DNA of 31,516 nucleotides, taken from a virus. Location of the stretch: the IMG/VR virus record IMGVR_UViG_3300020724_000020; one strand, written 5' to 3'. Under the pieces are notes generated by a model. The model searched no databases and was not told where the DNA came from. It saw only the letters and a program-made list of their open reading frames with translations. Positions 26,380-26,701 of this stretch are shown here, piece after piece (the first letter of the stretch is position 1; each line of letters opens with the position of its first letter). Made by a program: the position numbers and the translations under genes.

Positions 26380-26701
26380 TTAGGAACAATTAGGAACAAT
26401 CCGATATGAACCGATATGAAACATTAAATCGTATTCCTTCTTAAACGGCAAAAATATAACAAAAAATCTTACCAAATTGTGGCGAAATTAACCTAAATTT
26501 GAAGAAAAAATGGAGAAAAGTGGAGAAAAATGGAGGGGTTTTTAAACAGTATATAAACAAAGGCTTCCAGGGAACCTTGGATGGCTGACAGTGGTATGGG
26601 AAAATATTTATGATTCTAAAATACCATCCTCAATTGCTCTCATATCAACGCTTTCCAAACGCTTTCCAAACACTTTCCAAACGCTTTCCAATCACTTTTT
26701 T
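26380..26701. repeat. cluster of short tandem repeats: (TTAGGAACAA)2, (CCGATATGAA)2, (TGGAGAAAAR)2+TGGAGGGG, (AACGCTTTCCA)x4.5
   Basis: read directly; 10-11 bp periodicity; non-coding region between Fam-A array 3 and small membrane-protein genes. Confidence 0.85.

Follow-up and report, generated by a model that had tools for sequence, protein, structure and literature searches.

A conserved phased TGGAG/box element and young tandem duplications in an intergenic gap of an AT-rich, megaphage-related uncultured phage: a candidate composite control region

The stretch of DNA considered here, hereafter called the window, comprises the 31,516 nucleotides (nt) of IMG/VR virus record IMGVR_UViG_3300020724_000020. 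Within it, a gap of 390 nt (26343-26732) separates the last gene (26019-26342) of an array of short paralogous genes, designated Fam-A, from the open reading frame (ORF) of a membrane protein of 65 amino acids (aa) (26733-26930), and four different sets of short tandem repeats are crowded into this gap. An earlier note had described them as a single iteron-like cluster, whose helical-repeat periodicity would be typical of replication-origin iterons, partition sites or stacked transcription-factor sites. The question raised by this locus is whether the repeats constitute one element and, if so, of which kind. Our analysis revealed that the four repeat sets are real, yet they are not one element and differ in age and kind. 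Three of them are lineage-specific and slippage-like, and of the earlier ideas only that of stacked binding sites fits, for the TGGAG-containing set alone, whose 10-bp phase is conserved in three lineages. With a probability of roughly one half, we regard the gap as a composite intergenic control region of an AT-rich uncultured megaphage-related phage, rather than as a single iteron array.

Reading of the sequence, Tandem Repeats Finder and a repeat finder all confirmed the four sets and their positions:

26380-26400: TTAGGAACAA set, period 10, 2.1 copies, 100% (Tandem Repeats Finder)
26401-26420: CCGATATGAA set, period 10, 2.0 copies, 100% (Tandem Repeats Finder)
26506-26535: TGGAGAAAAR set, period 10, 3.0 copies, 90%; TGGAG starts at 26511, 26521 and 26531
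26647-26698: 11-mer array, period 11, 4.1-4.7 copies, 90-94%, score 76-90 (Tandem Repeats Finder)

Their composition had to be amended in two details: the TGGAG set includes a degenerate fourth unit (TGAAGAAAAA, 26500-26509), and the 11-mer array consists of four full units followed by AATCACTTTT. The location of the cluster, at the boundary between the last Fam-A gene and the genes of small membrane proteins, was described correctly in the earlier note. Its non-coding character also holds in practice; an ORF (26610-26930) formally spans the 11-mer array, yet the recorded product starts at 26733. Five exact tandem runs (from the four sets) occur in the gap against a mean of 0.03 in shuffled sequences, and none of 2000 shuffles reached three; thus, the repeat cluster is highly non-random. 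The scores of the 11-mer array are the highest in the window, apart from that of a 33-bp repeat at 5025-5096 (score 100).

The window has a GC content of 26%, contains small, densely packed genes and has no DNA match in the collection of isolated and sequenced phages. One of its proteins (428 aa), containing the shoulder and repeat domains of the major vault protein, is 71-77% identical to homologues on IMG/VR viral contigs of 40-222 kb and 47-51% identical to translated regions of LR756500, LR756501 and LR756503 (uncultured phage genomes of 462-735 kb); LR756501 and LR756503 are referred to as "megaphages" (PMC9723777). Since the relatives of this vault-like protein are located on large phage genomes, the window is considered a piece of a large uncultured phage. 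Via exact-protein look-ups, other samples in ENA, Logan and JGI yielded about a dozen contigs that belong to the same phage and match the window at 98.7-100% identity. Two Fam-A proteins have homologues in the diverged lineages L039 and L045-L048, which were identified in this way. The 15.5-kb contig L039 shares synteny with positions 23970-30790 of the window, and L046, taken as the representative of L045-L048, carries an 86%-identical homologue of the protein encoded at 25724-26017. A possible fourth lineage (L065) ends short of the conserved block described below. The related loci that were fetched and searched for this block total ~508 kb. Two further sources of relatives were rejected: in IMG/VR contigs identified via the vault-like protein and a 264-aa protein, synteny stops at window position 24015, which makes them of no use for the repeat region, and homologues of the 74- and 65-aa membrane proteins lie in unrelated contexts or have no DNA on record.

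Comparison of the window with L039 and L046 revealed a conserved element within the gap, composed of phased units, a spacer of fixed length and a box:

26500-26538: RTGGAG units at 10-bp phase, TGAAGAAAAA (degenerate), TGGAGAAAAG, TGGAGAAAAA and TGGAGGGG
26537-26582: 46-bp spacer, conserved in length and not in sequence; AT-rich in L046, 35% GC in the window
26583-26625, + strand: conserved box GGCTGAC-AGT-GGTATGGGAAAA-TATTT-ATGATTCTAAAA

The window and L039 contain three TGGAG units each. L046 contains five (GTGGAAAAAA GTGGAGTTTT GTGGAGTAAA GTGGAGAAAA ATGGAGTAAA), with TGGAG kept in four of them (the first reads TGGAA) and with variable fillers around it (TTTT, TAAA, AAAA). The consensus of the box over the three lineages is GGCTGAC-N3-GGTATGGGAAAA-N5-ATGATYCTAAAA, with three invariant islands: GGCTGAC (7/7), GGTATGGGAAAA (12/12) and CTAAAA (6/6). 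The alignment from the repeats to the box is ungapped, and the distance of 46 bp is fixed. Between the window and L046, 24 of 26 positions are identical in the TGGAG repeats and 31 of 43 in the box, as compared with 18 of 46 in the spacer and 11 of 27 in the stretch following the box; the identity expected by chance at this composition is ~31%, and the third codon positions of the neighbouring gene are identical in 67 of 98 cases. The difference between the conserved islands and the rest gave p = 1.4e-6 (Fisher test), with the segment borders drawn after the alignment had been seen. The argument for conservation rests on L046, because the 78% identity of the window and L039 over 26447-26652 is unremarkable beside the 73-80% found in other non-coding stretches of that pair.

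In the ~508 kb of fetched loci TGGAG-N5-TGGAG is confined to this block, and the box is present in one copy in the window and in each relative. The flanks of the element are non-homologous in L046 and in the haplotype L026. A metagenome search with an exact 24-mer of the conserved core gave no match. An exact 20-mer of the core matched coding sequence (...MPWEPWMADTIEK...) in L042-L044, three IMG/VR contigs of an unrelated phage with 40% GC, in which the 21-mer GGGAACCTTGGATGGCTGACA of the box occurs; this match was judged to be due to chance.

The suggestion of stacked transcription-factor sites fits the phased TGGAG set, with its three to five units and fixed distance to the box, but not the other three sets, which are lineage-specific. 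Because the register is strictly 10 bp, all TGGAG cores face the same side of the double-stranded DNA; the box lies at a distance of ~five to seven helical turns. The box itself includes a sigma-70-like pair, CTGACA (26585-26590) and TATGAT (26609-26614), separated by 18 nt (10/12 in a promoter scan). In L039, the terminator of the array is followed by ~80 nt, the phased TGGAG units, the spacer of fixed length and the box with its -35/-10-like pair, an order that fits the layout of an intergenic control region. From this arrangement we infer binding of a protein at TGGAG and promoter activity of the box. An oligomeric sequence-specific DNA-binding protein would occupy the TGGAG units cooperatively and, via the fixed spacing, would contact a partner assembled at the box, for which RNA polymerase or another regulator is the likeliest choice; the element would control rightward transcription into the variable gene module located downstream. 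Its function is probably regulatory.

Short phased binding sites are known from other systems. In plasmid R1, the 11-bp iterons of parC are bound by ParR around the par promoter, and MetJ binds tandem 8-bp met-boxes in 2-5 copies. The TGGAG set resembles both arrays in being composed of short direct repeats in helical register (three to five copies) and, as in operator and centromere arrays, it is intergenic, located downstream of a terminator and close to a promoter-like sequence. Unlike the R1 parC and met-box arrays, it has no adjacent par or repressor gene, its core is only TGGAG with free filler, and it lies ~50-75 bp upstream of the -35-like hexamer instead of flanking or overlapping it; it is a putative site, deduced from the sequence. 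Features of these kinds (phased short binding sites by a promoter; slippage repeats) are ordinary, and for the specific element no described counterpart was found.

Several points weigh against a control region. The promoter and operator roles are deduced from layout. Sigma-70-like matches are not enriched in the region (30 found versus 46 in shuffles), and Bacteroidetes, the likely host group of the related megaphages, have another promoter consensus. The best-conserved part of the box, GGTATGGGAAAA, falls between the putative -35 and -10 hexamers, which is unusual for a promoter, and the -10-like hexamer varies among the lineages (TATGAT, AACGAT, GATGAT), with the -35-like hexamer being kept. 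Family scans of the window ORFs recognised no gene of a DNA-binding protein nearby, and the element was seen in three lineages only. As the window and L039 share the spacer, the constraint on spacing amounts to two independent observations. We treat the three young repeat sets as neutral by default. Because an ORF of L026 reads through the TGGAG units (see below), a coding origin of this stretch retains a small probability.

The left part of the gap contains the two 10-mer duplications and a hairpin:

26334-26355, + strand: cassette-end hairpin AATCTGTGA-gtaa-TCACAGATT, overlapping the stop codon of the last Fam-A gene
26380-26399: TTAGGAACAA x2, perfect tandem duplication; alignment gap in L039; identical in 11 strain contigs
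26401-26420: CCGATATGAA x2, perfect tandem duplication within a decayed terminator-like hairpin

The cassette-end hairpin (a perfect stem of 9 bp; the folded 39-nt stretch has -11.9 kcal/mol, z = -4.1) is the only structure that stands out in folds of sub-stretches of the gap, and a sequence like it also follows the Fam-A gene ending at 25215. Both duplications are absent from L039, the one relative sharing this flank. At the homologous site L039 has a strong hairpin with a U-run (AAAATCCGAT...ATCGGATTTTTT; -16.3 kcal/mol, z = -4.2), whereas the window version folds at only -4.7 kcal/mol. Non-coding DNA is here 25-45% diverged between the window and L039, while the copies of each 10-mer are 100% identical; therefore, the duplications are younger than the split of these two lineages. 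The left part of the gap would represent the decayed end of the transcription unit of the Fam-A array, of which L039 keeps a strong intrinsic terminator, and TTAGGAACAA and CCGATATGAA would be young 10-bp slippage duplications picked up in the decayed terminator stretch; both are probably neutral. Interpretation of CCGATATGAA as a degenerate Fam-A start was rejected: the match of the 5'-end profile (26414-26433) is weak (window-wide E = 0.8), ranking first after the 17 recognisable cassette starts, and the match of the 3'-end profile has E = 19.

The right part of the gap leads into a gene module that differs between the lineages:

26647-26698: 11-mer array, AACGCTTTCCA x4 (third unit AACACTTTCCA) plus partial AATCACTTTT; copy number variable
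26694-26715: AT palindrome ACTTTTTTTTA/TAAAAAAAAGT (T8-AT-A8), perfect inverted repeat of a T-run and an A-run
26717-26728, + strand: promoter-like motif TTTTTATATTTG, a variant of the clade motif AAAAAWTTTATATATA, 4 nt before ATG 26733
26733-26930, + strand: gene of the 65-aa two-helix membrane protein, the first gene beyond the repeats
26653-27893, + strand: module replaced relative to L039, with the 11-mer array, the promoter-like motif, genes of 65, 74 and 119 aa and a terminator (27206-27239)

Positions 26300-27004 are identical across the contigs of the same phage, except for L029 and L026. L029 lacks exactly 22 nt, i.e. two 11-mer units, which leaves AACGCTTTCCA AACGCTTTCCA ATCAC..., and is otherwise identical over 1.7 kb. 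A single diverged unit (GTTTCCAAATACTTAC) is present in L039 and none in L046. The homology of the window and L039 (25689-26652) ends inside the first 11-mer unit and resumes at 27894; therefore, the array is located at the left junction of a 1.24-kb module, in place of which L039 carries 2.66 kb of other genes. The earlier note had proposed a search for the same 11-mer arrays; there is none elsewhere in the window or in any related locus, and a 22-mer from the array is absent from the viral collection. The other repeat sets do not recur in the window either. Matches of the 22-mer elsewhere (six in metagenomes, one in a genome) were rejected, all being unrelated (40-63% GC, other contexts). 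The array has the near-perfect head-to-tail structure of a slipped-strand repeat (90-94%), as have both 10-mer sets (100%), and it is the only set for which a whole-unit difference in copy number was found between near-identical genomes (L029). It would be a recent, still polymorphic expansion of a sequence that is single-copy in L039, located at the left edge of a swapped-in membrane-protein module, 20-35 bp upstream of the promoter-like motif that belongs to this module. The array probably arose by slippage and at most might modulate the promoter context.

The palindrome T8-AT-A8 resembles the T7/A7 layout that precedes the promoter-like motif at 30825 (30805-30833). TTATATATA follows an A-run 4-9 nt before the ORF starts of at least six genes, at 1707, 7077, 8133, 17195, 24285 and 30825, and the genes concerned include the first genes of several Fam-A arrays. 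An ORF start lies within 9 nt of the promoter-like motif in 20 of its 56 occurrences (window and relatives). An A-run with TTTATATATA was also seen 4-9 nt before the first genes of transcription units, both in the window (including position 39, - strand) and in L002, L008, L015 and L016; the tight spacing between the motif and the start suggests promoters that would yield leaderless or nearly leaderless mRNAs. The 65-aa ORF, missed by gene callers in most contigs, is probably real, since an identical protein is on record and relatives of 60-71 aa exist (E = 5e-6 to 9e-5).

The duplications of the gap are part of a wider pattern. The window has 20 exact tandem duplications with units of 9-12 bp, ~nine times the expected number; 300 dinucleotide shuffles gave 2.3 +/- 1.5. 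The differences among the ~99%-identical contigs are mostly insertions or deletions (indels), several of which are gains or losses of short tandem repeats; therefore, slippage is an active mutational process in this phage. One case is an in-frame 18-nt tandem duplication (TGAAACAATACCATACAA) at 28440, in the gene 28123-28659, as a result of which the product has 184 or 178 aa in different strain contigs. L027 carries a net insertion of roughly 28 nt, and a further strain difference is a 4-nt indel (sites of strain indels besides 28440: 28585-28600 and 29866).

Might the TGGAG repeats, spacer and box instead form a replication origin, a centromere-like partition site or a terminase-binding packaging site, at which the phased repeats would be recognised by an initiator, adaptor or small-terminase protein and a nucleoprotein complex would form across the spacer? 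This would agree with the single copy of the element in the fetched loci, with a spacer that is kept in length, free in sequence and AT-rich in L046, and with the persistence of the element while its flanks turn over. The direct repeats, three to five in number, are in helical phase, as in partition centromeres (26511, 26521 and 26531 in the window; five units in L046). The one neighbouring gene conserved in all three lineages is also of interest in this respect. It is a Fam-A member (25724-26017, + strand), the best conserved of its array (of 12 relatives, 11 are 65-87% identical to it and the remaining one 58%), and its product has a predicted BRCT fold (AlphaFold2 pLDDT 85), undetected by Pfam and PDB sequence searches: all top Foldseek matches of the model are BRCT domains of Dbf4, LigA and RFC1 (E ~3e-3), and this domain is common in replication and repair proteins. 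The link is nevertheless circumstantial. A gene of Rep or ParB, which the earlier note had proposed to look for nearby outside the window, was not found among the ~50 ORFs of the 31.5-kb window that were scanned against Pfam (the ten largest also against PHROGs), and neither were ParA, ParM, ParR, TubZ, helicase, primase or terminase genes; the families recognised were papain-like peptidase, vault-like domains, CYTH, two receiver domains and the resolvase N-terminal domain. The repeats are thus accompanied by no initiator gene in the window and by no adjacent operon of a nucleoside triphosphatase and adaptor, and the neighbouring genes differ between the lineages. No DnaA box (up to 1 mismatch) is present within 2 kb of the region, the nearest being located at 28951. 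The GC and AT skews do change at ~26.5 kb, but it is here that the Fam-A array, rich in A and with C>G, terminates, and the change follows the compositional boundary between Fam-A and membrane-protein genes; Fam-A genes elsewhere share the same composition, and the genes on both sides of the gap lie on the + strand, with no switch in orientation. Classical iterons are of 17-22 bp, and lambda ori consists of four 19-bp iterons and an AT-rich region. The gap resembles such origins in having several direct repeats, in single copy in the available sequence; the stretch beside them is AT-rich in L046 and has 35% GC in the window. It differs from them in that, instead of at least three direct repeats of ~17-22 bp, the units are of 10-11 bp with a conserved core of 5-6 bp, no initiator gene overlaps or adjoins them, nearby DnaA boxes and a strand or skew switch are lacking, and three of the four repeat sets are not conserved. 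The origin and partition functions proposed in the earlier note therefore received no specific support, and we consider an origin, partition or packaging site quite unlikely. Its more specific form, a site of the megaphage-related lineage served by an unrecognised initiator or adaptor, perhaps together with the BRCT-fold protein, is more doubtful still; if true, it would be one of the earliest cis sites of this type to be located in such phages.

The remaining explanations concern the neutrality, transcription or variability of the repeats. All four sets may be neutral debris, with TGGAG conserved merely as the 3' remnant of a gene that is intact in some haplotypes; we regard this as unlikely. 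L026, whose sequence left of 26506 is wholly different, has a 55-codon open frame that runs through the TGGAG units to a stop at 26551-26553 (...KNGEKWRKMEGFLNSI*). The window keeps only its last 16 codons, behind an in-frame TAA and TGA, and in L039 this frame is open over 24 codons, most of the changes being conservative. The slippage-prone genome and the similar identity of other non-coding stretches of the window and L039 are in line with this view. However, no reading frame is open in all lineages on either strand: L046 loses the frame, with a stop right after ...KWRKME, and a 10-bp unit of variable copy number cannot preserve a reading frame. The two extra units of L046 add a frameshifting length, yet the TGGAG cores are kept while the fillers change. 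Moreover, conservation extends ~70 nt past the stop codon into the box, across a spacer of near-chance identity and unchanged length. A search of 5.8 billion proteins yielded no homologue of the L026 peptide, and the L026-specific DNA is absent from the viral collection. In view of the five units and lost frame of L046, the interpretation of 26506-26553 as simply the 3' remnant of a gene was downgraded; the L026 ORF may instead belong to an upstream gene whose end falls by chance within a conserved non-coding module, and it would then not be the source of the conservation. It is highly improbable that the block encodes a small non-coding RNA, or serves as a leader, in which UGGAG motifs (CUCCA on the other strand) would bind an RNA-binding protein or pair with ribosome-binding sites. 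Its location downstream of a terminator in L039, with TATA-like and -35/-10-like motifs, would allow an independent transcript, and the units are reminiscent of protein-sponge RNAs, which carry repeated GGA-containing motifs. On the other hand, the fold z-scores are near 0 (whole gap: -0.01 on the + strand and +1.05 on the - strand; core: -0.8 and +0.5), the consensus folds of the three lineages are very weak (-3.4 and -4.8 kcal/mol on the two strands), and the pairing in the window's hairpins is disrupted in L039 and L046. In the window the block is not followed by a terminator, searches with Rfam (at the gathering score and at E = 10) and ARAGORN found no known RNA, and the strict 10-nt register is more natural for double-stranded DNA. 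Finally, the 11-mer array might be a contingency (phase-variation) element, the copy number of which would tune the strength or geometry of the membrane-gene promoter, so that the phage population would differ in the expression of e.g. a holin-like or exclusion protein. Tandem repeats whose copy number changes by slipped-strand mispairing occur in promoters or genes of bacteria and phages, and the sets described here share with them perfect or near-perfect repetition (11-mer and 10-mers), a whole-unit difference between near-identical genomes (exactly two units) and a genome-wide excess of duplications. The array also ends 35 nt before ATG 26733 and ~20 bp upstream of the promoter-like motif, and its 11-bp unit is about one helical turn, so that a 22-bp change preserves the rotational phase. 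Unlike in contingency loci, the polymorphism occurs in one contig only (1 of 12), consistent with a rare neutral variant, and a link between copy number and expression would here be conjectural. The array lies upstream of, and not between, the putative promoter elements, many such duplications are present in the genome, some of them inside genes, the promoter itself is a prediction, and the downstream proteins have no assigned function. Phase variation is thus improbable, and neutrality is the simpler reading, given the single variant contig and the slippage-prone genome. For the three young repeat sets, which lie at a recombination-prone junction, we infer neutrality, and for the TGGAG/box element the reading as part of a composite control region is preferred.

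Other features of the window deserve mention. Fam-A comprises arrays of ~100-aa paralogues that start with MK(Y/H)(I/L)K..(F/Y)E and end with KYN(L/M). The DNA ends of these genes are conserved (ATGAAAYAY... and ...AAATATAAYCTR followed by the stop), and the stop often overlaps the next start (TATGA). Tandem arrays are located at 1721-2068, 7092-10983, 14311-17168, 24302-26342 and 30838-31516, with truncated or frameshifted pseudo-cassettes at 24603-24912 and 25572-25663. The size of the arrays differs among relatives (~20 such genes in L039). These observations suggest that the cassettes may be gained and lost by recombination between their conserved ends.

Among the remaining genes, several encode domains that are unusual or of signalling type, i.e. 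a cREC_REC receiver, a stand-alone response-regulator receiver, the major-vault-protein shoulder and repeat, CYTH and a papain-like peptidase; these genes are located at 13788-14222 (-), 17208-17564 (+), 18515-19801 (+), 23605-24015 (+) and 3951-4715 (+). An ORF with a resolvase N-terminal domain (3434-3754) adjoins a 431-aa ORF without a Pfam match (2152-3447; window 2152-3910, - strand), an arrangement that resembles an IS607-type element. In the relative L060 (5870-7099), an OrfB_IS605/Cas12f-like TnpB gene is located ~0.6 kb downstream of a homologue of the BRCT-fold gene.

Three further non-coding regions were noted. A divergent intergenic region (30-115) has TATATA-type motifs on both strands, with the tandem sets TTTAACATTG (x1.9) and TTAACATTAAA (x2.1) between them. 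In a second long gap (30380-30837), upstream of a Fam-A array and ~80% identical to L039, AAAATCAAA(A)TTTTTTTTTGGGGAAAAAT occurs twice at a distance of ~60 nt, together with three TTCCAA motifs and (TATG)x5. The third is a stretch of ~560 nt without an ORF (29040-29600, + strand), of higher GC content, which has a terminator hairpin at its end (29563-29598), shares 73.5% identity with L039 12609-13214 and matches no Rfam family. With a fold of -144 kcal/mol versus -115 +/- 6.7 in shuffles (z = -4.3), we consider it a candidate for a structured non-coding RNA.

Short tandem duplication is a main source of strain-level variation in this phage, which matters for the interpretation of repeats elsewhere in such genomes. 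The eye-catching perfect repeats of a region can be its least informative part, and here selection kept an inconspicuous, phased core of 5 bp. Almost nothing is known of the cis-acting DNA signals of phages represented only by metagenomes. For relatives of the megaphages, the TGGAG/box element is now a specific candidate that can be put to the test, as a regulator-binding site or, with lower probability, as an origin.

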